Under the pieces are notes generated by a model. It saw only the letters and a list, made by a program, of their open reading frames with translations, was not told the DNA's origin and did not search any database. The translations under genes and the position numbers were made by a program. From Escherichia coli (GTDB lineage Bacteria; Pseudomonadota; Gammaproteobacteria; Enterobacterales; Enterobacteriaceae), in the NCBI RefSeq assembly GCF_045037415.1, contig NZ_CP173438.1: a stretch of DNA of 64,000 bases; one strand, 5' to 3'. Below are positions 5,432 through 27,727 of this stretch, piece by piece. Numbering within the stretch: position 1 is the first letter of the stretch; every line of letters starts with the position of its first letter.

Positions 5432-7902
5432 TGGCTATCAGTTGGATCCAGCCCAGCTTTGCCGGTGGTGAGATTGGACCGTCGTTGTACGGGCGTATTG
5501 ACATGGCGAAGTACCAGGTGGCATTGCGCAAGTGCGATAACTTTATCGTGCGGCAGTATGGCGGCGTTGAGAATCGACCAGGTACGCGTTTTGTCGGTGC
5601 CGCCAAATACCCAAATCGGAAATGCCGCCTGATCCCGTTCCAGTTCTCGACGGTTCAGACCTATGCTCTGGAGTTCGGACACCAGTACATGCGCGTTATC
5701 AAAGATGGTGCGTTGGTGCTGAACAGCAGCAATGTTATTTATGAAATTGCCACGCCATATACTGAAGCCGATCTGTTCCGAATTAAATTCACGCAAAGCG
5801 CCGACGTGCTTACGCTTGTTCATCCGGCATACCCGCCGAAAGAGTTGCGTCGCTATGCGCATGACAACTGGCAACTGGTTGATGTGGTAACGAAGAACGG
5901 ACCATTTGAAGATATCAATATTGACGAGTCAGTGACGGTTTATGCCAGCGCCAGCACCGGGACAATTACGTTAACGGCAAGCGCCTCTATTTTTGGCGCG
6001 GAGCAGGTAGGCAAATTGTTCTATCTGGAACAGCCTGCAGTGGATTCTGTGCCGGTATGGGAAACCAGTAAGAGTACGTCAATTGGCGATATTCGCCGTG
6101 CAGACAGTAACTACTATCGCGCCGTTACAGTAGGCAAAACAGGCACTTTGCGCCCTTCGCATACAGAAGGCACATCATGGGATGGCTGGGGCGGATCCGG
6201 TGATGATGATACCGGCATTGAGTGGGAGTATCTGCACAGTGGTTTTGGCATTGCCCGTATCTCTGCTGCAAATGGAACTACTGCAACTGCCGAGGTGATT
6301 TCCTATATCCCTTCGCAGGTAGTTGGCGAGGATAATGCCAGCTATAAATGGGCTAAATATGCCTGGAACAGTGTTAATGGTTATCCTGGCACTGTTGTTT
6401 ATTATCAACAACGTCTTTACTTCGCCGCATCGACTGCGTTTCCTCAGACTATCTGGGCCAGCCGTACCGGGGATTATAAGGATTTTGGCAAAAGCAATCC
6501 TACGCAGGATGACGACAGAATTATCTACACCTATGCCGGGCGTCAGGTTAATGAGATCCGCCACCTGATTGATGTTGGTTCGCTGGTGGCGCTGACTTCC
6601 GGAGGTGAGTACGTCATCACTGGCGACCAGAACAAAGTGCTTACCCCATCATCATTTGCATTCAGCTCTCAGGGATCAAATGGCTCGAGCAATGTCCCAC
6701 CAATTGCCGTGGCGAATATTGCTCTGTTCGTCCAAGAGAAAGGCAGTGTTGTCCGTGATCTGGCCTACTCATTCGATGTTGACGGCTATCAGGGGAACGA
6801 CCTGACCATCCTTGCCAATCATCTTTTTCAGAAGCACAGCATTGTTGACTGGTGCTTCTCGATAGTCCCTTACTCCAGCGCCTTCTGCATTCGTGATGAC
6901 GGTAAATTACTGGTGATGACCTATTTGCGTGATCAGCAGGTTTTTGCATGGGCACCACAATCCAGTACCGGAAAATATGAAAGCACATGCAGTATCAGCG
7001 AAGGAAATGAAGATGCGGTGTATTTCGTCGTTAACCGAACCGTTAACGGGCAAACAGTGAGATACATCGAGCGACTGTCCAGCCGTTTATTTACCAGCGA
7101 TGAAGATGCTTTCTTTGTTGATTCTGGCCTTAGCTATGATGGAAGAAATACGTCTGACAGAACGATGATCATCACTGGTGGTTCTGGCGAATGGGATTAC
7201 CGCGAGGAATATACAATCAGTGTTTCTGGTGGTGCGTACTTCACCAGTAGTGATATCGGTGCCCAACTACAGTTCCCTTATACCGGAACTGATCCTGATA
7301 CTGGCGATGAAGTGTCAAAAGAATTACGTTGCGACATTATTTCTGTAACCAGCAATACCGCTGTAGTGGTTCGTGCTAACAGGAACGTCCCGCCATCCCT
7401 CAGGAATGTGGCCACCACGAACTGGCAGATGGCGCGCCGGACATTTGGAGGCCTGTCTCATCTTGAAGGCCAGACCGTAAACATTCTCTCTGATGCGAAC
7501 GTGGAACCACAGAAAGTGGTTTCCGGAGGTGCCGTCACGCTGGAATCTCCGGGGGCTGTAGTGCACATCGGCCTGCCAATAACTGCTGAATTCGAAACAC
7601 TGGATATCAACATTAACGGACAGGAAACGCTGCTGGACAAAAAACAGGTGATCCCCTCCGTTACTCTGGTTGTGAATGCCAGTCGCGGCATCTGGGCGAC
7701 TACGCCCGGCGGTAAATGGTACGAATATCCACAGCGTGAATTCGAGTTCTACGATGATCCTGTTGATGATGCTACCGGAAAAGTAGAAGTGAAACTGGAC
7801 AGTAACTGGGGCAAAAACGGACGTGTAAAAATCCGTCAGCTTGATCCGTTGCCGCTGTCTGTTCTTGCCGTTATTCCTCGCCTTACTGTTGGGGGATTCT
7901 GA
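5431..7902 (+). CDS. Tail tubular protein B-like nozzle protein (823 aa)
   Basis: ATGA overlap with upstream gene; size and position equivalent to T7 gp12. Confidence 0.55.
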   Translation: MAISWIQPSFAGGEIGPSLYGRIDMAKYQVALRKCDNFIVRQYGGVENRPGTRFVGAAKYPNRKCRLIPFQFSTVQTYALEFGHQYMRVIKDGALVLNSSNVIYEIATPYTEADLFRIKFTQSADVLTLVHPAYPPKELRRYAHDNWQLVDVVTKNGPFEDINIDESVTVYASASTGTITLTASASIFGAEQVGKLFYLEQPAVDSVPVWETSKSTSIGDIRRADSNYYRAVTVGKTGTLRPSHTEGTSWDGWGGSGDDDTGIEWEYLHSGFGIARISAANGTTATAEVISYIPSQVVGEDNASYKWAKYAWNSVNGYPGTVVYYQQRLYFAASTAFPQTIWASRTGDYKDFGKSNPTQDDDRIIYTYAGRQVNEIRHLIDVGSLVALTSGGEYVITGDQNKVLTPSSFAFSSQGSNGSSNVPPIAVANIALFVQEKGSVVRDLAYSFDVDGYQGNDLTILANHLFQKHSIVDWCFSIVPYSSAFCIRDDGKLLVMTYLRDQQVFAWAPQSSTGKYESTCSISEGNEDAVYFVVNRTVNGQTVRYIERLSSRLFTSDEDAFFVDSGLSYDGRNTSDRTMIITGGSGEWDYREEYTISVSGGAYFTSSDIGAQLQFPYTGTDPDTGDEVSKELRCDIISVTSNTAVVVRANRNVPPSLRNVATTNWQMARRTFGGLSHLEGQTVNILSDANVEPQKVVSGGAVTLESPGAVVHIGLPITAEFETLDININGQETLLDKKQVIPSVTLVVNASRGIWATTPGGKWYEYPQREFEFYDDPVDDATGKVEVKLDSNWGKNGRVKIRQLDPLPLSVLAVIPRLTVGGF

Positions 7903-8366
7903 TGATCGATGTTCAAATTATTCCCGCAACCGAAGAGCATCTTCAGATGATTTTGCCGGATGTTCGTCAGGCTGATATTGACGAACTGTATGCGGTATCA
8001 CTGATGACTACCGAAGATGCGCTGCGTGTTGGTCTGCGTACTGCGACTATGGCCTGGTCAGGATTTGCGAACGGAGAACTGGTAACCATGTTTGGCGTAT
8101 CTCCGGCGTCAATGATCGGTGGCAATGGTACGCCATGGCTGGTAGGAACCAGCCGTATTGAAAAATATCAGAAGACATTTCTTCGCCACTGCCGCCCTGT
8201 ATTGCAGCAGATGCTGGCAGTTTATCCGCGTCTGGAAAACTACGTCGACGAGCGAAACCATGTTGCCAAAGCATGGCTCCACTGGCTTGGATTCAGGCTT
8301 GAAGAAGCCGCGCCTTATGGTGCTCTTGGTCTTAATTTCCACAGATTTCACATGGAGAGAAAATAA
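7902..8366 (+). CDS. Hypothetical virion protein (154 aa)
   Basis: Overlapping start and stop in late operon. Confidence 0.55.
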   Translation: MIDVQIIPATEEHLQMILPDVRQADIDELYAVSLMTTEDALRVGLRTATMAWSGFANGELVTMFGVSPASMIGGNGTPWLVGTSRIEKYQKTFLRHCRPVLQQMLAVYPRLENYVDERNHVAKAWLHWLGFRLEEAAPYGALGLNFHRFHMERK

Positions 8367-8905
8367 TGTGTAACCCAGCCATCGCTTTGGTTGCCGTCAC
8401 AGTGGCATCCACAGCCGCGTCAATGTACAGCCAGAGCAAGCAGGCAAAATACCAGTCAGCCATAGCTGATCGGAATGCTGAAATTGCTGAAGCTCAGGCA
8501 CAGGATTCAATCAATCGTGGGAATATTGAAGCGGATCAGCGTCGTCGTGAAATGCGTCAACGCTCAGGCACTGCGGCGGCCACTATGGGGGCTACCGGTG
8601 CGGAATTAAGTAGCGGAACAGCTCTTGACGTTTTTGCGGATAATGCTCAGTTCGGCGCTCTTGATGCGTTAACGACAGTGAATAATGCTCAGCGTGAGGC
8701 ATATGGGTATCAGGTTCAGGGAATGAATGCTCAGGCACAGGGGGCTGCTGCTCAGTCGGCTGCTAAATCATCGATGACCAGCACTTTGTTAACAGCACCA
8801 CTAAAAGCATACGGTGCATACCAGATGGGCGGAGGAACGTGGAGCCCATTCTCTCAGAAGGCTGCGCCGATTTCTGCTGCTGTTGGCACTCCAACCGGTC
8901 GATAA
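8366..8905 (+). CDS. Internal virion protein with hydrophobic N-terminus (179 aa)
   Basis: TAATG overlap; hydrophobic N-terminal segment; position equivalent to T7 gp14. Confidence 0.5.
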   Translation: MCNPAIALVAVTVASTAASMYSQSKQAKYQSAIADRNAEIAEAQAQDSINRGNIEADQRRREMRQRSGTAAATMGATGAELSSGTALDVFADNAQFGALDALTTVNNAQREAYGYQVQGMNAQAQGAAAQSAAKSSMTSTLLTAPLKAYGAYQMGGGTWSPFSQKAAPISAAVGTPTGR

Positions 8906-8917
8906 GGGGATAATAAG

Positions 8918-11431
8918 ATGCCAGTTGTACCAACAACATCGGGCCGTCAGGTTCAGAGCAGAGGGATTTCGACGCAGGGATTCTCATCGTTTCAGACGCC
9001 AAATGTCGGTGATGTACTTGGCGATGTTGCAGAGCAATATGCAGGTATTATTGCGCAGGCAAAACAGCGTGCGAATGTTGCTATGGCTCAGGATGCTTCT
9101 CTTAGCTTAAGCCAGATAAGCAGCGATCTGCTGAATAACCCTGAAACAGGTTTGCTTAACCTGAAAGGGAAAAATGCTATTGGAAAAGGTCAGGAGTATA
9201 CGCAGCAGTTTGATGCCCAGGTCGAGCAACTGGCTATGTCGCTGCCGGATGAACAGGCTCGTAATGCTTTCATGCAGCAGGCGCAGCAGCAGCGCATTCA
9301 GTTCACTACGCAGGCCGGGCGGCACGAGATAGGGCAAATAAATGCCTACGAAGAAGGCCAGTTTCAGGCGACGCTGCTGAACAATGGTAAAAATGCCGCA
9401 GCATTGTATGGCGACAACGCCGCATACGTATTGGCTAATAAGCAAACTTTCCAGCAAATTGAGGATTACGGCATTGCGCATGGCTGGAGCGACGAGCAAA
9501 TCCAGGCCAAGAAAATCGAGTTTAAAGAGAAGGTTGCTGATGCAGCATTGTCCCAGTGGTCGGCAAACAATGCGACCGCATTCATCCAAAGTAATGGCGA
9601 GTTAAGTGATACTGCTGCTGGAGCTAGCCGTGCTGTAGCAGATAGTGATTCTTCCGAGCGTGCCCGTGGCATACGCAACAATAACCCAGGAAATCTCGAA
9701 TACAGCAAAACCAATCCGTGGGTAGGCCAGACCGGTGATGATGGTCGATTTGCTAAATTCGAAACACCTGAACACGGGATTCGTGCATTAGGGCGGAACC
9801 TGATGTCGTATCAGAGGCAGGGTATTGATACCGTCAGCGAGATAATTAATCGCTGGGCACCGCCTACTGATAAAAATGACACTATGTCGTATATCAAAGC
9901 AGTGTGCGAACAACTTGGCGTTTCTGCTGATGAGCCTCTCGATGCATCTAATCCTGATACCCTGAAGGCGCTTTGTGCAGCCATTATCCATCATGAGAAC
10001 GGTAGCCAGCCATACAGTGATCAGCTGTTAAGTGCTGGTGTCAGTGCAGCACTTGGTTTATCAACAATTCCAACCAACACCAAACGCTATACCGGTAATG
10101 CAGCATTCGATGCGGCATCTCCTGAGGCGCAGGCAAGTTTTATGCGACAGGCGGATCAACTGCGTCGGCAGCAGCAGGCTGAATATAAAACGATGATTGA
10201 CAGCCAAGTTCGCGATGCGACAGCTGCGTATATGCGTGGCGTTGAATTTCCTAACCCACCTGGTGAGGCTGATTTTATTGCAGCTTATGGAGTCAGAGAA
10301 GGAAACCTGCGATATACCGAGTTCAGAAATACGCAAATCGCCGGACAGTATATAGGCTCTTTCCGCAACATGCCGACAAGCAGCATTACAGCATATGTTG
10401 AGCAATTACGCCCGGATACTGGTGAGACAGGGGAGGGTTATGCGGCACGAGCCGCTCTTTATGACAACGTTGTGTCGGCTGCAAGTCAGGTGATAAAGCA
10501 GCGACAGGCTGATCCTGTACAGTTCTCTCTTGCCGCCGGACAGGCAAAGCCTATCGACATGAGCAATAAGGATAACTTTGGACAGAGCGTTGCCTTGCGT
10601 GCTGCTCAGGTCAGTGACCTTGCTAAGTCATATGGCACTCCACTGACGTTCTTTTCCAAAGACGAGGCCAATCAGATCGGTGTTTTCTTTCGTAATGCGC
10701 CCGTTTCCCAACAGGCAGCATATCTCGATACCATCAGGCAGAGCACTGGTGGTGGGCAGGTGTATATGTCAGCACTACAGCAGATCAGTGCCAACGCTCC
10801 ATCTGCTGCCGTTGCCGGGATACTGATGGATAAGCCAGGTGGTATTTTGGCAGAAAAAAACTGGTTTAATCCGGATGTTTCCGTGTCTCCTGAAACCGCT
10901 GCGCAGACAATTCTTGCTGGCGCGGCGGCTCGTAAAGGTACTGATGACGCGAAAGGTATTCCGATGCCTAAAGATGCTGATCTTCGCCTTGAGTTTTCTG
11001 ACATGGTGAAGGATGCATTTGCTGGTGATGCTCAGGGGGCATCAATGGCATACGAGATCGCAAAGGACTATTACGCTGGTGTGATGGCGAAAAAAGGCGT
11101 GGTATCAGGCGAAATTGACAATGATATCTGGAAACAGGCTGTTAACGTAGCTACAGGTGGCGTGCATGACTATAACGGAATGGGGAATGTTCTTTTGCCT
11201 TGGGGAATGTCTGCAGAGCAATTCGATAAGCAGGTTAATCAGGTTTGGAATGAACAAGTTGTTGGCACAGGGATAAAAACACCGCCTGGTCAGTATGGTT
11301 TGCAAAGTTACGGCGATAGTCAGTACCTGGTGAAACTTGGTACTGGTTATCTGCTAAAAGATGATGGTTCTCCCGTTGTTCTTGATCTGACACAGAAGCG
11401 TCAGAGATTCTCCGGAGATATTCCGCAATGA
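8918..11431 (+). CDS. Large internal virion (ejection/core) protein, 837 aa
   Basis: RBS AAGGGGA; first of three consecutive large proteins equivalent to podovirus core proteins; contains a GIRNNNPGNL motif block. Confidence 0.6.
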   Translation: MPVVPTTSGRQVQSRGISTQGFSSFQTPNVGDVLGDVAEQYAGIIAQAKQRANVAMAQDASLSLSQISSDLLNNPETGLLNLKGKNAIGKGQEYTQQFDAQVEQLAMSLPDEQARNAFMQQAQQQRIQFTTQAGRHEIGQINAYEEGQFQATLLNNGKNAAALYGDNAAYVLANKQTFQQIEDYGIAHGWSDEQIQAKKIEFKEKVADAALSQWSANNATAFIQSNGELSDTAAGASRAVADSDSSERARGIRNNNPGNLEYSKTNPWVGQTGDDGRFAKFETPEHGIRALGRNLMSYQRQGIDTVSEIINRWAPPTDKNDTMSYIKAVCEQLGVSADEPLDASNPDTLKALCAAIIHHENGSQPYSDQLLSAGVSAALGLSTIPTNTKRYTGNAAFDAASPEAQASFMRQADQLRRQQQAEYKTMIDSQVRDATAAYMRGVEFPNPPGEADFIAAYGVREGNLRYTEFRNTQIAGQYIGSFRNMPTSSITAYVEQLRPDTGETGEGYAARAALYDNVVSAASQVIKQRQADPVQFSLAAGQAKPIDMSNKDNFGQSVALRAAQVSDLAKSYGTPLTFFSKDEANQIGVFFRNAPVSQQAAYLDTIRQSTGGGQVYMSALQQISANAPSAAVAGILMDKPGGILAEKNWFNPDVSVSPETAAQTILAGAAARKGTDDAKGIPMPKDADLRLEFSDMVKDAFAGDAQGASMAYEIAKDYYAGVMAKKGVVSGEIDNDIWKQAVNVATGGVHDYNGMGNVLLPWGMSAEQFDKQVNQVWNEQVVGTGIKTPPGQYGLQSYGDSQYLVKLGTGYLLKDDGSPVVLDLTQKRQRFSGDIPQ

Positions 11432-13230
11432 GTTACTTTGGCCTTAATCCAGTAAACCAGAATCAGCAGCTTGACGAAGCAGCATCAAATCCAGCTGGCT
11501 TTAACAGCGATGTTGGTTTTTTCGACAATGCTGTAGGAGCGGCATTGTCTGGTTTGTACTCCGGGCTGGTGGCAAAGCCAGATCAGTTGCTCTGGGCAGG
11601 GATGGATAAAATCGTATCCCCGATTGCTCAGTTTGTTAACGAAAACACCTCGCTCAATGACACTTCAGTTTCATACATTGCCGAGCAGAGAAAACTAGCA
11701 GAGCAGCAGGTTAAGCGGCTGACGCCTGATGCCGCGACAACCGGAACCGCCGGGCAGGTTCTTTATGGGTTGTTCGATATGGGCGGGCAGGCTGTTGTCG
11801 GTACAACGCTCGGTGGTCCTGTCGGAGGTGCAGCGGCGGTAACTTCGCTACAGGGTTTTTCTGAGTTTGAACGGCTGACAGCACAGGGTGTTGATTTCAG
11901 GACAGCGCAGGAAGCGGGATTAGTGCAGGGCATTACTGCTGGGGCCGGGACATTGATCCCTATGAGCCTCGGGTTACGTGCTGGTGGTGCGCTGGCGGAA
12001 GGTGTGGCGGCTCAGCTCGCGCGGACGGGTGAGAGTTCAGTGCGACGCGCCGCAGCAACAGCAGTACGTGCAACGCCAGATATTGCCTATGCCGCAGGTA
12101 CAAATATTGCGTTCGGTATGGCACAGCGTGGGCTTACTGCAAAAACGCTTCGTGATGGTGGCTATAGCGAAATGGCTAACCAGTATGATGTGTTGGATCG
12201 ACAGGCAATTGCTATTGATGCTGTTCTTGGGGTGGCGTTTGGTGGTGTCGGCAGATTTATTAACTCTCGCGGCGAGTCTACAAGCGCACCAAATTTTTCA
12301 CAAGTTGATGTTGATGCTGCACTGGCGGCGAATGCCGCTCATCATGCTGAAATTGATATTGCGCCCGGCGTGCCGATCAACGTGCTTTCGCGCAATTCTC
12401 ACATTCAGGCTCTGCGAAAAGCTATGTCTGATGTTAGCCAAGGGAGACCTGTAGACGTTGCCAGCATTGTTGAGTCTGCATCTTTCAGTGAAATTCCTGG
12501 GCGCAAGAGTCTGCTGTCTCAGGCAGTTAATGAGGCTCTGTCATCTGTAGATGATGGAGTAACGGCGCGCTCTATAGAAAATCGGTTGCTTGAAGAACAG
12601 GCCGCGCAGCTTTTGCCGCGTGGAGATAGACAGGTTTACCAGTCTGAAATCGCTAATAGCCAACGAATTATTGAAAATCTCACTGAACAGCGTGCACAAA
12701 TTCTTGCAGAAGATCCAACCGGTAGCGGTAAAGCTTTGTCTCGTGCTCGATCAGATAAACAGGCCAGACTTCGCGATATTGATCAACGAATCCGGCAGGC
12801 ACAAGAACGCCTGGAATTTTCCCGTAACGCGTTGGCACCGCACGAGCCTGGCGGTCAGTTTTTTGAAGCTCGAGCAGAACTGGCTCGGAGACAGCAGGCA
12901 GAAAGTGAACTTAATGCTCAGGCTGTTTCATTCTATAAAACAGCAGAGGTCAGGACGCCAGACGAAGTAGCTCCTTTTGAGCCTGATAAAATATTGCAAC
13001 AGGCAGAACAAAAAATGATGGCGGATCAGGCGGGAGATATTGATCTGCGCATAGCTGAAGACTCGCTGCTTGAATCACCTGACATGATAATCACCGTGCT
13101 GGATGATGATGGTAATCCACAATCGCGCAGCGCGCGTGAAGTACTGGATGAAGCGAACAGGGAAAGTGAGCAGGCAATACAGGATTCAAGCCTGTTTGAT
13201 GTAGCTGTGGCGTGTTTCTTGAGAGGTTAA
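11428..13230 (+). CDS. Internal virion protein, 600 aa
   Basis: ATGA overlap; Ala/Gly-rich N-terminal half, coiled-coil-like C-terminal half. Confidence 0.55.
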   Translation: MSYFGLNPVNQNQQLDEAASNPAGFNSDVGFFDNAVGAALSGLYSGLVAKPDQLLWAGMDKIVSPIAQFVNENTSLNDTSVSYIAEQRKLAEQQVKRLTPDAATTGTAGQVLYGLFDMGGQAVVGTTLGGPVGGAAAVTSLQGFSEFERLTAQGVDFRTAQEAGLVQGITAGAGTLIPMSLGLRAGGALAEGVAAQLARTGESSVRRAAATAVRATPDIAYAAGTNIAFGMAQRGLTAKTLRDGGYSEMANQYDVLDRQAIAIDAVLGVAFGGVGRFINSRGESTSAPNFSQVDVDAALAANAAHHAEIDIAPGVPINVLSRNSHIQALRKAMSDVSQGRPVDVASIVESASFSEIPGRKSLLSQAVNEALSSVDDGVTARSIENRLLEEQAAQLLPRGDRQVYQSEIANSQRIIENLTEQRAQILAEDPTGSGKALSRARSDKQARLRDIDQRIRQAQERLEFSRNALAPHEPGGQFFEARAELARRQQAESELNAQAVSFYKTAEVRTPDEVAPFEPDKILQQAEQKMMADQAGDIDLRIAEDSLLESPDMIITVLDDDGNPQSRSAREVLDEANRESEQAIQDSSLFDVAVACFLRG

Positions 13231-15844: not shown

Positions 15845-15929
15845 TATTAGGAATTGTATTGTTCGGAAGAATAATAAAATAACTAGTTAATTTGTGGATT
15901 GGTGCTGTTTTTCCATGATAGGGGTAATT

Positions 15930-16310
15930 ATGAGAAAAGTATTTTTGATTTTTGGATTTATGCTTCTCGTTGGATGCCAGTCAGCTGCACAGTTTGAAAG
16001 AAATATGCTTACGTGGCGCGGGCAGAGTATAGACGCAATGGTTCAGCAGTGGGGGTATCCTCAGGGAGAGCTTACATCTCCAGATGGAAACAGAGTGTAT
16101 GTTTACTCAAGCTCTGGTAGTTATAACGTACCACAAACCACAACGTATAATACTACGTCTAATCTAATTGGTAATACTATATATTCAAACACATACGCAA
16201 CAACTGATGGCGGTTATACACTCCATTTCAGTTGCTCTGTTTACGTTGAGTTTGGTGCTGATAAGATTATTAAAAATGTTACATGGCGCGGTAATAATTG
16301 CGTTGCGTGA
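15930..16310 (+). CDS. Lipoprotein (moron), 126 aa
   Basis: Signal peptide MRKVFLIFGFMLLVGC with lipobox LLVGC; AT-rich context; terminator directly downstream. Confidence 0.7.
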   Translation: MRKVFLIFGFMLLVGCQSAAQFERNMLTWRGQSIDAMVQQWGYPQGELTSPDGNRVYVYSSSGSYNVPQTTTYNTTSNLIGNTIYSNTYATTDGGYTLHFSCSVYVEFGADKIIKNVTWRGNNCVA

Positions 16311-21558: not shown

Positions 21559-21960
21559 ATGAATGGCACGGTTACGGCGGATTCACTGAATCAAGGGTTA
21601 AGCTTGGGTGCGCTGGCCTCTGTCGTCTACGGCGTTCCGCCAGAGGTGGCTCTCGGTGCTCTGGCTGGTGCGGTAATATTTGTTACCTCTGCTGTAGAGT
21701 ATCCTGTTCGTCGTCGTGTACTCTTGTCGATACTCAGCTTTCTTTGTGGTCTTCTCTTTTACAAACCAACAACATCAATTCTTATCGGAATAGCCAGCAT
21801 GATACCTACCATCACGCAGGACTCTTTCGAGAAAGGGATTGTTTTCTCTGCTGGCGCATTCGTGTCAGCAATTGTCGCAGTGCGAATTGGTATATGGCTC
21901 TATCACCGTTCTGATAATCCACGCCAGTTAATTCCTGGGAGAAAAGGCGATGGTAACTAA
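21559..21960 (+). CDS. Membrane protein with about four TM segments (holin or antiholin candidate)
   Basis: Hydrophobic helices; immediately upstream of holin-like and endolysin genes. Confidence 0.45.
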   Translation: MNGTVTADSLNQGLSLGALASVVYGVPPEVALGALAGAVIFVTSAVEYPVRRRVLLSILSFLCGLLFYKPTTSILIGIASMIPTITQDSFEKGIVFSAGAFVSAIVAVRIGIWLYHRSDNPRQLIPGRKGDGN

Positions 21961-22258
21961 TGAGCTTGTTTTGCTTATCACCAATGCAATTATTTGTACT
22001 GGCATAGCAATTCGCGTTGTCACATTCCGGCGTAACGGCTCTCAACATCGAAGATGGGGAGGGTGGCTTGCTTATTTCCTTATTGTTGCTGCGGCCAGTA
22101 TTCCTGTTCGTGTCGCCTATGCAATCTGGTTACGTACGCCAATGGCTGTGGATTTATCTGAGGTCATTATCAACGCTGTCATGCTTGCCGCGGTTATTAA
22201 AACACGCGGTAACGTTGTTCAGATTTTCAAAACATCGAGGTCTAAACATGGAGATTAA
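21950..22258 (+). CDS. Putative holin (102 aa, about three TM segments)
   Basis: Small membrane protein with charged C-terminus directly before the endolysin. Confidence 0.55.
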
Positions 22259-22877
22259 ACAATTCCAGCGAGCTGCTGGTATTAGCGAGGCTCTGGCCGC
22301 ACGCTGGTTCTCGCATATAACTTCTGCGATGAAAGAGTTTGGTATCAGAAAACCCGAAGATCAGGCAATGTTTATTGCTCAGGTCGGGCATGAGTCTGGT
22401 GGCTTCACCAGGTTGCAGGAGAATTTCAATTACAGCGTCACCGGACTGGCTAACTTCGTTCGTGCCGGTCGTCTTACTCAGGGACAGGCTAACGCATTGG
22501 GTCGTCGTGCAGGCGAGCCACCATTGCCACCTGAGCGCCAGCGTGCGATTGCCAATCTGGTGTACAGCAAACGCATGGGGAACAATGCCTCTGGTGATGG
22601 CTGGAATTACCGTGGCCGCGGACTTATCCAGATTACCGGTTTGAATAACTATCGTGATTGCGGAAACGGCCTGAAAGTGGACCTGCTGGAGAATCCTGAA
22701 CTGTTGGCGCAGGACGAATACGCGGCTCGTAGCGCGGCGTGGTTCTTCTCCAGCAAAGGTTGCATGAAGTATACCGGCGATATTGCACGTGTAACTCTGA
22801 TTATCAATGGTGGCAGGAATGGCATCGACGACCGGCGCGTGCGGTACATCACTGCCAGTAAGGTGCTGGCGGTATGA
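22248..22877 (+). CDS. Endolysin, glycoside hydrolase family 19-like
   Basis: GAGG RBS then ATG at 22248; motif [12 protein letters not shown] and [12 protein letters not shown] typical of GH19 lysozymes; ORF track start at 22017 is an in-frame upstream extension. Confidence 0.75.
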
Positions 22878-23371
22878 TCTGGGCATTCGCAAAAGCATAC
22901 CGGAAACAGTTGGTTGTCATGGCGATGCTTGCTGTTCTGGTCATATCAGGAGTTGTTGCCTGGAATGTGCATGGCAGCCGCCAGTACGATGCCGGGTATG
23001 CTCAGGCGAAGGAAGATCAGAAACAGGCTGATGATAAGTTAAGGTCACAGCGTGAGCAGGAGAAAACACAAATTGAACGTGAAGCACAATCCCGTATCGA
23101 TGCGGCGCGTGCTGATGCTGAGTATGCTAATTCCGCTGCTGACAGCATGCGCGCCGAGCTTGACAAAACCAGGCGGCTCGCCGAACACTATACCGGATCT
23201 TTCCCCCCTGGCACGCCAGCCAGCAAGGTCATCGGTGTGCTCGCCGACATGCTTGAAGAAAGCAACCGAGTTTACAACGCAACAGCAGCTGAGGCTGAAA
23301 AGTATCGTATCGCAGGGGAATTCTGCGAGCAGCAATACGATTCACTGAAGAAGCAAAAATCGTGGCACTGA
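22874..23371 (+). CDS. Rz-like i-spanin
   Basis: ATGA overlap with endolysin; N-terminal TM segment then charged coiled-coil region. Confidence 0.65.
23100..23348 (+). CDS. Rz1-like o-spanin lipoprotein embedded in the Rz gene (+1 frame)
   Basis: Lipobox LLTAC followed by a Pro-rich sequence; fully embedded in the spanin gene; start codon uncertain. Confidence 0.5.
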   Translation: MRRVLMLSMLIPLLTACAPSLTKPGGSPNTIPDLSPLARQPARSSVCSPTCLKKATEFTTQQQLRLKSIVSQGNSASSNTIH

Positions 23372-23565: not shown

Positions 23566-24105
23566 TTAGTTAAACCAGCTATCTGATTTATTCTCTTCTG
23601 CTTTACCCACGCTTTTCATCAGATCGCGACCGCCTTCAGTCATATTTCTGTTTGCGTCAGCTTCAGATTGCACCACATCGGTTTGCGCAGCTTTGTGCTT
23701 CAGTTCCTGATCGATAAATTCGTTTTCGCGCTTAACGCGGGCTTCTTCTTTCGCCAGCGCCAGTTTTTGTTTCTGAATCTCTAAGCTACGTAGCTCATCT
23801 TCATAACTTTGATCGCGTTTTTTGTCCGCAGTGGCTTCGGCGTCCAGTTTATCCTGACGAGCTTTCTTATTCGCTGCTGCCGTTGCCGCTCTTTTATTAG
23901 CCGCGGCCTGGGCGTTTGCGCGACGTTGCTTCTCTTGCTGGATTTCCCTGTTGCGCTCCGCGACCCATTCGTCATGCTGCCTTTGCTCTTCATTTTTACC
24001 TTGCTGTTCCGCTTCTGCGACAGCCGAGAGTTGATCCTGCAATGATGAGGCGATAGCCGGATAGCTTAAGGAGGCTAAGATGGCGCAAAGAAAAACTTTC
24101 TTCAT
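23566..24105 (-). CDS. yfgI: Uncharacterised protein YfgI
   Basis: 179-aa product with signal peptide and charged coiled-coil; matches K-12 neighbourhood. Confidence 0.85.
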   Translation of the reverse strand: MKKVFLCAILASLSYPAIASSLQDQLSAVAEAEQQGKNEEQRQHDEWVAERNREIQQEKQRRANAQAAANKRAATAAANKKARQDKLDAEATADKKRDQSYEDELRSLEIQKQKLALAKEEARVKRENEFIDQELKHKAAQTDVVQSEADANRNMTEGGRDLMKSVGKAEENKSDSWFN

Positions 24106-24120
24106 GACTCCTCCTGATTA

Positions 24121-24639
24121 TTAGCTCTTTTCAGGACATTTGGTATTTGGCTGAATACGCGTTTCGTTATACGTCGTGGTAATAACAACGGCTAAACCTG
24201 TCGTAAACTGGCACTCTTTACCCACTTGGGTGGAGGTATACACTTTGGTGCCTTCCTTATATGTTAAAGAAACACCTTCCACTAAGGTTTTATCATTCAC
24301 CATAGAACCCGCTGCCGCGCCTACAGCTCCGCCGCCAACTGCACCTGCCGTCGTTCCGGAATTGCTGCCAGACCCGACGTTGTGGCCGATAACACCGCCA
24401 GCGACAGCGCCAATAAGCGCGCCGAAGGCTTGTGCGTTCCGTTTATTTTGGGCGTTGTCTACGGCAACTTTTGCGGGAAGAATGGAAATAATATTAACGG
24501 TTTTAGTTTCTTGTTTGGTATTCAGTTGATCGGTTTGATAAACATCGGCGGCATGATCATCAGCATTTGACTGGCATCCTGCCAGAGTGAATGACGCTAA
24601 CATTGCCACAGGCAGAAGACATTTTTTAAATTTCATCAC
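24121..24639 (-). CDS. yfgH: Glycine-zipper outer-membrane lipoprotein YfgH
   Basis: 172 aa, lipobox LAGC, Gly-rich zipper region. Confidence 0.85.
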   Translation of the reverse strand: MMKFKKCLLPVAMLASFTLAGCQSNADDHAADVYQTDQLNTKQETKTVNIISILPAKVAVDNAQNKRNAQAFGALIGAVAGGVIGHNVGSGSNSGTTAGAVGGGAVGAAAGSMVNDKTLVEGVSLTYKEGTKVYTSTQVGKECQFTTGLAVVITTTYNETRIQPNTKCPEKS

Positions 24640-25483: not shown

Positions 25484-27727
25484 ATGAAACTGAATGCAAC
25501 TTATATAAAAATACGTGATAAATGGTGGGGGCTTCCGCTGTTCCTGCCTTCTTTAATCTTGCCCATTTTCGCCCACATTAATACTTTCGCGCATATTTCT
25601 TCCGGTGAAGTTTTTCTCTTTTATCTGCCACTGGCACTGATGATCAGCATGATGATGTTTTTCAGCTGGGCGGCATTGCCAGGGATCGCCTTAGGGATTT
25701 TTGTCCGCAAATATGCAGAGCTGGGTTTTTACGAAACGCTCTCATTAACGGCTAATTTTATTATCATTATCATTCTCTGTTGGGGCGGTTACAGGGTTTT
25801 TACCCCCCGGCGTAACAACGTTTCACATGGTGATAGCCGTTTAATTTCCCAGCGACTATTCTGGCAGATTGTGTTTCCTGCAACGCTGTTTCTGATACTT
25901 TTCCAGTTTGCTGCGTTTGTAGGGTTACTGGCGAGCAGAGAAAATCTGGTCGGCGTCATGCCCTTTAACCTCGGGACCTTAATCAATTATCAGGCCTTGC
26001 TGGTGGGTAATCTGATTGGTGTCCCGCTGTGCTACTTTATCATTCGGGTGGTGCGAAATCCGTTTTATTTACGTAGCTATTATTCGCAATTAAAACAGCA
26101 GGTTGATGCCAAAGTTACCAAAAAAGAGTTCGCAATCTGGCTACTGGCATTAGGTGCCTTATTGTTGCTGTTATGCATGCCGTTAAATGAAAAAAGCACG
26201 ATTTTTAGCACCAATTACACCTTGTCATTATTGCTGCCCCTGATGATGTGGGGAGCGATGCGCTATGGTTATAAGTTGATTTCATTGCTCTGGGCGGTCG
26301 TGTTGATGATCAGCATCCATAGCTATCAAAATTACATTCCCATTTATCCTGGCTATACCACGCAGCTGACCATAACCTCCTCCAGTTATCTGGTATTCTC
26401 TTTTATTGTCAATTATATGGCTGTACTGGCAACCCGTCAGCGAGCTGTAGTCAGACGCATTCAGCGGCTTGCGTATGTGGACCCGGTGGTTCATCTGCCA
26501 AATGTTCGCGCCCTGAATCGCGCGTTGCGTGATGCCCCCTGGTCTGCGCTATGCTATTTACACATCCCTGGCATGGAAATGCTGGTTAAGAACTATGGCA
26601 TCATGCTGCGGATTCAATACAAGCAAAAACTTTCTCACTGGCTGTCACCATTGCTGGAACCGGGTGAAGATGTTTATCAGCTTTCGGGTAACGATCTCGC
26701 GCTGCGGCTGAATACAGAATCGCACCAGGAGCGCATTACCGCACTGGATAGCCATCTCAAGCAATTTCGTTTCTTTTGGGATGGAATGCCGATGCAACCG
26801 CAGATTGGCGTCAGTTACTGCTATGTGCGCTCGCCAGTGAATCATATCTACCTGCTGCTGGGAGAGCTAAATACGGTGGCCGAACTTTCCATCGTGACCA
26901 ACGTCCCGGAAAATATGCAGCGTCGCGGAGCAATGTATTTGCAACGCGAATTGAAAGATAAAGTCGCGATGATGAATCGACTACAGCAGGCGCTGGAACA
27001 CAACCATTTTTTCCTGATGGCCCAGCCGATTACCGGTATGCGTGGTGATGTTTACCATGAAATTCTTCTGCGCATGAAGGGTGAGAATGATGAGCTGATC
27101 AGCCCCGATAGCTTCTTACCGGTCGCGCACGAATTTGGTTTATCGTCGAGTATCGACATGTGGGTCATTGAGCATACGCTGCAATTTATGGCTGAAAACA
27201 GAGCGAAGATGCCCGCTCACCGTTTTGCTATTAATCTGTCTCCAACCTCGGTATGTCAGGCTCGTTTTCCTGTTGAAGTCAGTCAGCTGCTGGCTAAATA
27301 TCAGATTGAAGCGTGGCAACTTATTTTTGAAGTCACCGAAAGTAATGCTCTGACCAATGTTAAGCAGGCGCAAATCACCTTGCAGCATCTTCAGGAATTA
27401 GGCTGCCAGATTGCGATTGATGATTTCGGCACCGGCTACGCCAGCTATGCGCGGCTTAAAAATGTGAATGCCGATCTGCTTAAAATTGACGGCAGTTTTA
27501 TCCGCAATATTGTGTCAAATAGTCTGGATTATCAGATAGTGGCGTCGATTTGCCACCTGGCGCGAATGAAGAAAATGCGGGTAGTGGCAGAGTACGTTGA
27601 AAACGAAGAGATCCGCGAGGCGGTGCTCTCTTTGGGGATCGATTATATGCAGGGTTATCTTATTGGTAAGCCGCAACCGTTAATTGATACGCTGAATGAA
27701 ATCGAACCCATTCGCGAAAGTGCCTGA
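25484..27727 (+). CDS. pdeF: Membrane-anchored cyclic-di-GMP phosphodiesterase PdeF (YfgF)
   Basis: 747 aa; multi-TM N-terminus, degenerate GGDEF and EAL domain (EVTES...DDFGTGYAS). Confidence 0.9.
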   Translation: MKLNATYIKIRDKWWGLPLFLPSLILPIFAHINTFAHISSGEVFLFYLPLALMISMMMFFSWAALPGIALGIFVRKYAELGFYETLSLTANFIIIIILCWGGYRVFTPRRNNVSHGDSRLISQRLFWQIVFPATLFLILFQFAAFVGLLASRENLVGVMPFNLGTLINYQALLVGNLIGVPLCYFIIRVVRNPFYLRSYYSQLKQQVDAKVTKKEFAIWLLALGALLLLLCMPLNEKSTIFSTNYTLSLLLPLMMWGAMRYGYKLISLLWAVVLMISIHSYQNYIPIYPGYTTQLTITSSSYLVFSFIVNYMAVLATRQRAVVRRIQRLAYVDPVVHLPNVRALNRALRDAPWSALCYLHIPGMEMLVKNYGIMLRIQYKQKLSHWLSPLLEPGEDVYQLSGNDLALRLNTESHQERITALDSHLKQFRFFWDGMPMQPQIGVSYCYVRSPVNHIYLLLGELNTVAELSIVTNVPENMQRRGAMYLQRELKDKVAMMNRLQQALEHNHFFLMAQPITGMRGDVYHEILLRMKGENDELISPDSFLPVAHEFGLSSSIDMWVIEHTLQFMAENRAKMPAHRFAINLSPTSVCQARFPVEVSQLLAKYQIEAWQLIFEVTESNALTNVKQAQITLQHLQELGCQIAIDDFGTGYASYARLKNVNADLLKIDGSFIRNIVSNSLDYQIVASICHLARMKKMRVVAEYVENEEIREAVLSLGIDYMQGYLIGKPQPLIDTLNEIEPIRESA

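Follow-up and report, generated by a model that had tools for sequence, protein, structure and literature searches.

A predicted Enc34/PHA02564-type peptidoglycan glycosidase domain within an internal virion protein of an epsilon15/phiV10-like prophage in Escherichia coli

The 64,000-nucleotide (nt) stretch of Escherichia coli DNA analysed here (contig NZ_CP173438.1 of assembly GCF_045037415.1; hereafter, the window) carries an epsilon15/phiV10-like temperate podovirus, a Uetakevirus prophage; it was taken as a prophage because host genes start at position 25484 (~25.5 kb), with the gene for a MASE1-EAL protein. The subject of this report is the plus-strand open reading frame (ORF) at 8918-11431, which encodes a protein of 837 amino acids (aa). 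A preliminary description, made from the sequence alone, had noticed in this protein a conserved-looking block that might be a folded enzymatic or binding domain, and had not assigned it to a family. The ORF is preceded by a plausible ribosome-binding site (AAGGGG, 9 nt 5' of the start), and its stop codon and the start of the next gene share an ATGA overlap. Antisense ORFs within the gene (e.g., 9107-9589 on the minus strand) were rejected as spurious, since the plus-strand protein has conserved full-length homologs. The features of the gene are listed below; equivalences with Enc34 residues were assigned by alignment with the numbering of PMC8943055.

8918..11431, plus strand: 837-aa ORF, ortholog of epsilon15 gp15 and of the phiV10 and ZX5 'virion protein'; candidate for internal virion protein C (IVP-C); PHROG 992 over the full length
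8918..9046, plus strand: N-terminus (aa 1-43), predicted to be disordered (predicted local distance difference test score (pLDDT) <50 in the full-length model)
9026..9595, plus strand: N-terminal helical scaffold (aa 37-226), common to TL-2011b gp37 and Carin1 gp33
9632..9664, plus strand: flexible linker (aa 239-249) ahead of the enzymatic domain (pLDDT <50)
9662..10057, plus strand: Enc34/PHA02564-type muralytic domain (aa 249-380), mostly helical with a short beta-hairpin
9665..9694, plus strand: family motif RGIRNNNPGN (aa 250-259), with G251, R253, N256, G258 and N259 invariant
9854..9856, plus strand: Trp313 (in RWAPP), equivalent of Enc34 Trp79 (substrate positioning)
9890..9892, plus strand: Tyr325, equivalent of Enc34 Tyr95
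9995..9997, plus strand: Glu360 (in HHENGS), equivalent of Enc34 Glu131, the proposed catalytic residue
10100..10837, plus strand: helical middle region (aa 395-640; full-length model)
10865..11398, plus strand: C-terminal alpha/beta module (aa 650-827; full-length model), with PHROG 35810 on aa 637-837

The full-length AlphaFold2 (AF2) model of the protein had a pLDDT of 82.7 and consisted mainly of long helices outside the enzymatic domain, that is, it had the extensively alpha-helical character of an IVP-C member. In the structure models, a second flexible linker (aa 381-394) was found on the 3' side of the muralytic domain. The similarity to gp37 of Escherichia phage TL-2011b stops at the first linker, with the end of the BLASTP alignment at aa 248. 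The flanks of the domain are rich in Ala, Gln, Gly and Ser (entropy, 3.4-3.8 bits versus 3.8-4.1 bits within the domain, in 40-aa windows); they are, however, confidently predicted helices, with an alpha/beta domain at the C-terminus, and the preliminary description of the rest of the protein as low-complexity was thus not upheld. No transmembrane, hydrophobic or signal-anchor segment was detected in the 837-aa protein (maximum KD19 hydropathy, 1.02).

Residues ~249-380 fold as a discrete domain that belongs to the Enc34/PHA02564 muralytic family. In the phmmer search against PDB chains, the protein matched 9vvp_L (Gp29; E=1.2e-38, aa 249-399) and 7q47_A (Enc34 endolysin; E=3e-17, aa 249-366), both matches being restricted to aa 249-399, and with the profile built from 31 homologs the E-values for the two chains were 4.6e-62 and 1.7e-39, respectively. 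The entry 7Q47 is the catalytic domain of ORF39, the endolysin of Hafnia phage Enc34 (Cernooka et al. 2022, PMC8943055), and gave the first structure for PHA02564, a family of the NCBI CDD described as 'PM2 P5-like'. The domain of the 837-aa protein is 43% identical to this enzyme, the muralytic activity of which was measured with a turbidity assay: the Enc34 domain (ORF39deltaC) lysed E. coli, P. aeruginosa and H. alvei cells with a permeabilised outer membrane (PMC8943055). Sequence similarity, the helical fold of 7Q47, and the Trp/Tyr/Glu signature were all found in the domain of the window protein. Pfam and NCBIfam scans of the whole protein and of the isolated domain matched no family (for Pfam, even at E<=1), and the InterPro check that had been suggested for this block would therefore probably be of little yield.

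The Enc34 domain has an all-helical fold with a distant likeness to the alpha-lobe of lysozymes, and its authors proposed Glu131 as the catalytic residue, together with Trp79 and Tyr95, Trp79 serving for substrate positioning; the specificity that they proposed was that of a GH73-like N-acetylglucosaminidase (PMC8943055). Of the equivalent residues in the 837-aa protein, E360 and Y325 were invariant in both alignments examined, one of 52 diverse domain homologs and the other of 31 full-length homologs that share the architecture; W313 and the RGIRNNNPGN motif were conserved in at least 90% of the sequences in the former. By analogy with Enc34 and GH73, the activity of the domain is probably that of a beta-N-acetylglucosaminidase. 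The suspicion of a folded enzymatic domain within an internal virion protein was thus supported, with the catalytic signature of the Enc34/PHA02564 family intact, and the fold is an enzymatic one rather than the non-enzymatic structural fold that had been named as the outcome speaking against it. The strings quoted in the preliminary description were all found in place (GIRNNNPGNL at aa 251-260, nt 9668-9697; WVGQ at aa 268-271; RFAKFETPEHGIRALGRNLMSYQR at aa 277-300; IINRWAPPTDKNDTMSYIKAV at aa 309-329). Compared with the limits given there (residues about 250-370), the modelled domain is slightly longer (about aa 249-380, nt 9662-10057).

The impression that the block is conserved was also justified, and far beyond chance, by the identity contrast among homologs, by the size of the family and by a low rate of nonsynonymous substitution (dN). 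Among the 31 full-length homologs, the mean identity to the query was 0.44-0.62 at aa 241-390 versus 0.18-0.32 in the flanks. In the comparison with epsilon15 gp15, the dN was 0.086 for the domain, 0.14-0.18 for the adjacent parts and 0.94 for the C-terminal 300 aa. The muralytic domain is the most conserved part of the 837-aa protein and has the lowest dN; the dN alone was used in this comparison, because the dS was saturated and the dN/dS ratios were unreliable. At the DNA level the gene was 97-98% identical to those of phages vB_EcoP_ZX5 and phiV10 and 75% identical to that of Salmonella phage epsilon15 (Uetakevirus). The protein was 59% identical to epsilon15 gp15 (AAO06078.1) overall and ~86% identical within the domain, and aa 531-837 were mosaic (~25% identity to epsilon15 gp15). 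The gene was also mosaic at its 5' end: DNA similarity to phiV10 started from query nt 138, and the encoded aa 1-240 were 84% identical. The mosaic stretches of the gene correspond to 8918-9055 and 10508-11431, and the similarity to epsilon15 collapsed beyond ~aa 530.

The 160-aa domain segment matched 13,200 clusters at E<=1e-3 in a 50%-identity library of 1.84 billion representatives, and many of these clusters were proteins of 800-950 aa with the domain at about aa 240-400. The Enc34-type domain was found in 817 phage records, in lysis-cassette endolysins (Chi-like phages), in structural proteins (Mu-like Pseudomonas phages), in corticovirus/autolykivirus-like phages (PM2 P5) and in 'internal virion protein D' of Kayfunavirus. 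Some metagenomic relatives had the domain in two to four matched stretches per protein (e.g., four in a 762-aa protein), and one had it inside a protein of 3,773 aa. The labels of the family in phage records were in conflict ('head protein', 'structural protein P5', 'endolysin', 'lytic transglycosylase'), 'structural protein P5' being derived from PM2 P5. The gene itself was present in 418 of 5,426 complete E. coli genomes, and the best 10 of the 418 matches were all labelled 'hypothetical protein'. These labels arise from the lack of a Pfam or NCBIfam match to this large, characterised family. The practical value of the assignment is thus mainly in annotation: the family is very large, structurally and biochemically characterised, and unmatched by Pfam/NCBIfam.

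The domain is replaced by an SLT domain in homologous proteins, in two different scaffolds. One is gp16 of K1F-like phages. The protein Gp29 in the PDB entry 9vvp is gp16 of a K1F-like Kayfunavirus; by tblastn, it was 99% identical to the 'DNA ejectosome component' of phage ZCEC02. A literature search on the entry 9VVP found no relevant paper. The gp16 of Kayfunavirus CLB_P1 (1295 aa) was 53% identical to T7 gp16 over aa 125-1295, and its first ~124 aa, which gave no alignment to T7 gp16, are the Enc34-type domain. The Pfam SLT domain was detected at aa 15-127 of T7 gp16 (1.7e-31) and was not detected in CLB_P1 gp16. The analogy with T7 gp16 that had been drawn in the preliminary description is therefore apt, as the K1F-like ortholog has the same domain N-terminally, exactly where T7 has SLT. 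The other scaffold is that of the window protein. By tblastn of phage genomes with the N-terminal 240 aa, we found the syntenic gp37 of TL-2011b (46% identical over aa 1-248) and gp33 of Cobetia phage Carin1 (29% identical over aa 1-224), which carry Pfam SLT at aa 263-342 (3.6e-7) and aa 276-379 (8.5e-20), respectively, in the slot held by the Enc34-type domain in the window protein. A word-indexed homolog search with the same 240 aa returned short gene fragments only. In TL-2011b (6001-11732), the gp14-like gene is followed by genes for two large proteins, one of 905 aa with SLT and then one of 1004 aa, in place of the three in the window and epsilon15; thus, the number of large internal proteins varies between phages that share the gp15-like N-terminal scaffold.

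This non-orthologous displacement, seen in two different scaffolds, argues strongly, if indirectly, that the Enc34-type domain does the same job as the proven SLT entry lysin, and on the basis of the two natural swaps it is reasonable to regard the domain as functionally equivalent to the transglycosylase of T7 gp16. The swap pairs also suggest ready-made chimeras with which the contribution of the lysin domain to entry could be studied. We regard it as unlikely that the replacement at homologous positions of the two unrelated scaffolds reflects adaptation rather than neutral mosaicism. If it did, the Enc34-type domain, as a probable glucosaminidase and possible endopeptidase, might breach walls that resist lytic transglycosylases owing to O-acetylated or otherwise modified peptidoglycan or to periplasmic inhibitors of lysozyme or transglycosylases, and the choice of lysin domain would be one determinant of the host range or the growth-phase range.

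The gene order around the 837-aa gene is the same as in epsilon15: portal, capsid, tubular tail A, tubular tail B (823 aa), gp13-like to gp17-like proteins, and tailspike. The neighbours with a bearing on the role of the protein, and the separate lysis cassette of the element, are as follows.

7902..8366, plus strand: 154-aa homolog of T7 gp13 / IVP-A (epsilon15 gp13, acetyltransferase-like; PHROG 308 'internal virion protein'; weak PF11090; PMC4819975)
8366..8905, plus strand: 179-aa homolog of T7 gp14 / IVP-B (PF24072 T7_gp14, 3.3e-8; PHROG 418 'internal virion protein')
11428..13230, plus strand: 600-aa epsilon15 gp16-like protein, second IVP-C candidate (PMC4819975)
13236..15710, plus strand: 824-aa epsilon15 gp17-like protein, homolog of IVP-D / T7 gp16 according to Hardies et al. 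(PHROG 684; synteny; PMC4819975)
21950..23371, plus strand: separate lysis cassette (holin, 21950-22258; GH19 endolysin inside the ORF 22017-22877; Rz-like DUF2514, 22874-23371)

The Pfam matches in the lysis cassette were PF05449 (7.5e-27), PF10721 (4.6e-21) and PF00182 (2.8e-9), and the GH19 endolysin of epsilon15 has been characterised separately in the literature. PDB sequence searches with the 600-aa and 824-aa neighbours gave no meaningful match. The 837-aa gene lies 3' of the IVP-A and IVP-B genes and 5' of the IVP-D gene, which is the gene order of an IVP-C. Hardies et al. (PMC4819975) assigned epsilon15 gp13 to IVP-A, gp14 to IVP-B and gp17 to IVP-D, with gp15 and gp16 as IVP-C candidates, and concluded that proteins of this kind 'variably host tail lysozyme domains'. 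Epsilon15 gp15 is also named in a list of injection apparatus components in a 2025 paper that cites Guichard 2013. According to reviews, the same logic of an entry lysin holds for T7 gp16 (SLT), phiKMV gp36 and the SP6/K1-5 gp15-like proteins (lysozyme). Because the gene lies in the internal-virion-protein operon and the element carries a separate holin/GH19 endolysin/Rz cassette, the most likely role of the domain, by analogy with these systems, is that of a virion-borne entry lysin that would open the wall for DNA entry. The architecture of an Enc34-type endolysin was rejected for the window protein, in which the C-terminal membrane domain is lacking and the gene of which stands outside the lysis cassette.

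Taken together, we consider that aa ~249-380 are a predicted, catalytically competent peptidoglycan glycosidase of the Enc34/PHA02564 family, carried as a passenger in an epsilon15/phiV10-like internal virion protein (probability, roughly 0.85). The analysis established the family membership, the fold, the conservation of the catalytic signature, the gene position, the presence of a separate endolysin and the interchangeability with SLT. The packaging, ejection, enzymatic activity, bond specificity and order of events we infer as follows. The 837-aa protein would be packaged in the capsid alongside the other internal proteins; at infection, it would follow the gp14-like outer-membrane protein out through the portal-tail channel and would refold in the periplasm. 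The domain, tethered between the two flexible linkers, would there cleave glycan strands locally, with Glu360 as the putative acid catalyst and with Tyr325 and Trp313 presumably positioning the substrate. A trans-envelope conduit for the DNA might then be built through the wall by the helical flanks and the gp16-like and gp17-like proteins. Such an arrangement is ordinary: its type is already known and so, in essence, is this very case, because epsilon15 gp15 has been flagged as muralytic, the family has been solved and assayed, and the domain is present in the deposited structure of a K1F-like ejection protein. The scientific value is accordingly small, a virion-associated lysin being expected on a podovirus ejection protein.

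Several points weigh against this picture. We infer the activity, the bond specificity and the timing for the 837-aa protein, and the chemistry of the family is so far ambiguous: high-performance liquid chromatography on the related M4Lys suggested both glucosaminidase and endopeptidase products. One review ascribes the epsilon15 core solely to gp17, so that gp15 may be located either in the internal core or in the tail hub or tube. The comparison with T7 gp15 gave a weak Foldseek resemblance of the whole model to 7k5c_A and 6yt5_A (E~9e-3; probability, 0.92 and 0.87; template modelling score only 0.15-0.19), and hhalign with the 31-sequence profile was negative, with a probability of 0.5% for T7 gp15 and no match to T7 gp16; homology of the flanks to T7 gp15 is therefore not claimed.

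Among the alternatives, it seems very unlikely that the domain is a lytic transglycosylase of the SLT/GH23 type, which would cleave the bond between N-acetylmuramic acid (MurNAc) and N-acetylglucosamine with formation of 1,6-anhydroMurNAc, as does the N-terminus of T7 gp16. This identity is written in the GenBank note on AAO06078.1 (epsilon15 gp15; 'putative lytic transglycosylase', from an HHpred match to SltB 4anr), some database fragments of homologs carry the name 'lytic transglycosylase', and SLT domains sit in the same slot of the TL-2011b and Carin1 proteins. In addition, the Enc34 authors argued for a distant common ancestry with GH23/GH73, with a Glu/Tyr/aromatic signature in common (PMC8943055). 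In comparison with GH23/GH73, however, the Enc34 core shows a circular permutation, and the structure nearest to it is that of a GH73 N-acetylglucosaminidase (PMC8943055). Moreover, Pfam detected no SLT (PF01464) in the 837-aa protein even at E<=1, although the positive controls (T7 gp16, TL-2011b and Carin1) all passed, and the SLT-type identity was therefore rejected; transglycosylase chemistry as such is considered improbable. A domain of the Enc34/PHA02564 family might also be a catalytically inactive module, binding peptidoglycan or purely structural, that anchors or positions the ejection tube in the wall. The Enc34 authors obtained no sugar-bound crystals (PMC8943055), and the virion lysin activity of T7 is dispensable under many conditions according to a review. 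Such a role is nonetheless highly unlikely in view of the invariance of the proposed catalytic Glu and its partner Tyr (and the near-invariance of Trp) across both diverse and same-architecture homologs, the identity of 43% to an enzyme of measured activity, the fact that the strongest purifying selection within the protein falls on the domain, and its interchangeability with SLT domains.

The explanation to which we give the least credence of all places the action of the domain late in infection, as an endolysin or second lysin, and not at entry. The founding members of the family (Enc34 ORF39, M4Lys and the lysins of Chi-like phages) are true endolysins in lysis cassettes, and the PHROG families that overlap the 837-aa protein bear the label 'endolysin'. 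Here, by contrast, the domain sits midway in an 837-aa structural protein of the tail/internal-protein operon, this protein is without a transmembrane or signal-anchor segment, and a complete holin/GH19 endolysin/Rz cassette is present elsewhere in the element. Furthermore, the same domain is resolved in the deposited structure 9vvp of the K1F-like gp16, which is annotated as a DNA ejectosome component.

Some further observations were made on the prophage and on database records. Directly after the internal-protein operon, a 138-aa ORF (15894-16310) has a lipoprotein-like signal and a lipobox (…MLLVGC QSAA…) and no Pfam match; possible identities are a moron and a superinfection-exclusion lipoprotein. 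At the prophage end, just ahead of the host genes, a DUF5384 gene and a glycine-zipper/TraT-like gene (23566-24639, minus strand) are probably lysogenic-conversion cargo. A tRNA scan for an attachment site found no tRNA anywhere in the window. Table 1 of the review PMC8954989 gives, as the epsilon15 homologs of gp14/15/16, gp11 (229 aa), gp12 (499 aa) and gp13 (708 aa). These sizes look P22-like and conflict with the epsilon15 GenBank record (gp14, 180 aa; gp15, 842 aa; gp16, 634 aa; gp17, 918 aa), and the statements in that review on 'small' epsilon15 ejection proteins may rest on a wrong assignment. Two records of E. coli O157 typing phages, KP869105.1 (phage 7, 167.7 kb; 167340-167724) and KP869106.1 (phage 8, 89 kb; 107-491), have at their extreme end or start a 385-nt piece of the 3' end of the gene (99.5% identical), which appears to have been carried over during assembly from typing phages 9 and 10, both phiV10-like. 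The whole gene was present in an unannotated 114.9-kb record, 'phage PH444'.

Comparison with known systems places the domain as follows. Enc34 ORF39, as well as M4Lys of Salmonella phage BSPM4 and P5 of corticovirus PM2, has the same RGIRNNNPGN motif and the same Trp/Tyr/Glu signature. ORF39 is a 26-kDa endolysin of a lysis cassette with a C-terminal two-helix membrane domain, whereas the domain in the window is internal to an 837-aa helical virion protein without a membrane segment, in a phage that has a separate GH19 endolysin. The closest counterparts are the orthologs in epsilon15 (gp15), phiV10 and vB_EcoP_ZX5, which have an identical gene order (gp11-gp17); the label of epsilon15 gp15 in GenBank names another enzyme family than the evidence supports. 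The K1F-like gp16 (9VVP Gp29; CLB_P1 gp16), also a podovirus ejection protein, carries the Enc34-type domain as well (E 1e-38). There, the domain is N-terminal on a 1295-aa gp16 (IVP-D), while in the window it is internal and the protein is in the gp15 (IVP-C) position. T7 gp16, phiKMV gp36 and the SP6/K1-5 gp15-like proteins likewise carry a muralytic domain on an internal ejection protein for the breach of peptidoglycan at DNA entry, and in phiKMV and SP6/K1-5 it is also on a gp15-like protein, as in the window. The enzyme families of these phages are different (GH23 SLT or lysozyme), and the domain is N- or C-terminal, not internal. Finally, TL-2011b gp37 and Carin1 gp33 share with the window protein the homologous N-terminal scaffold (~240 aa), the synteny and a muralytic slot at ~aa 260-380, which in these two proteins holds Pfam SLT rather than the Enc34-type domain.

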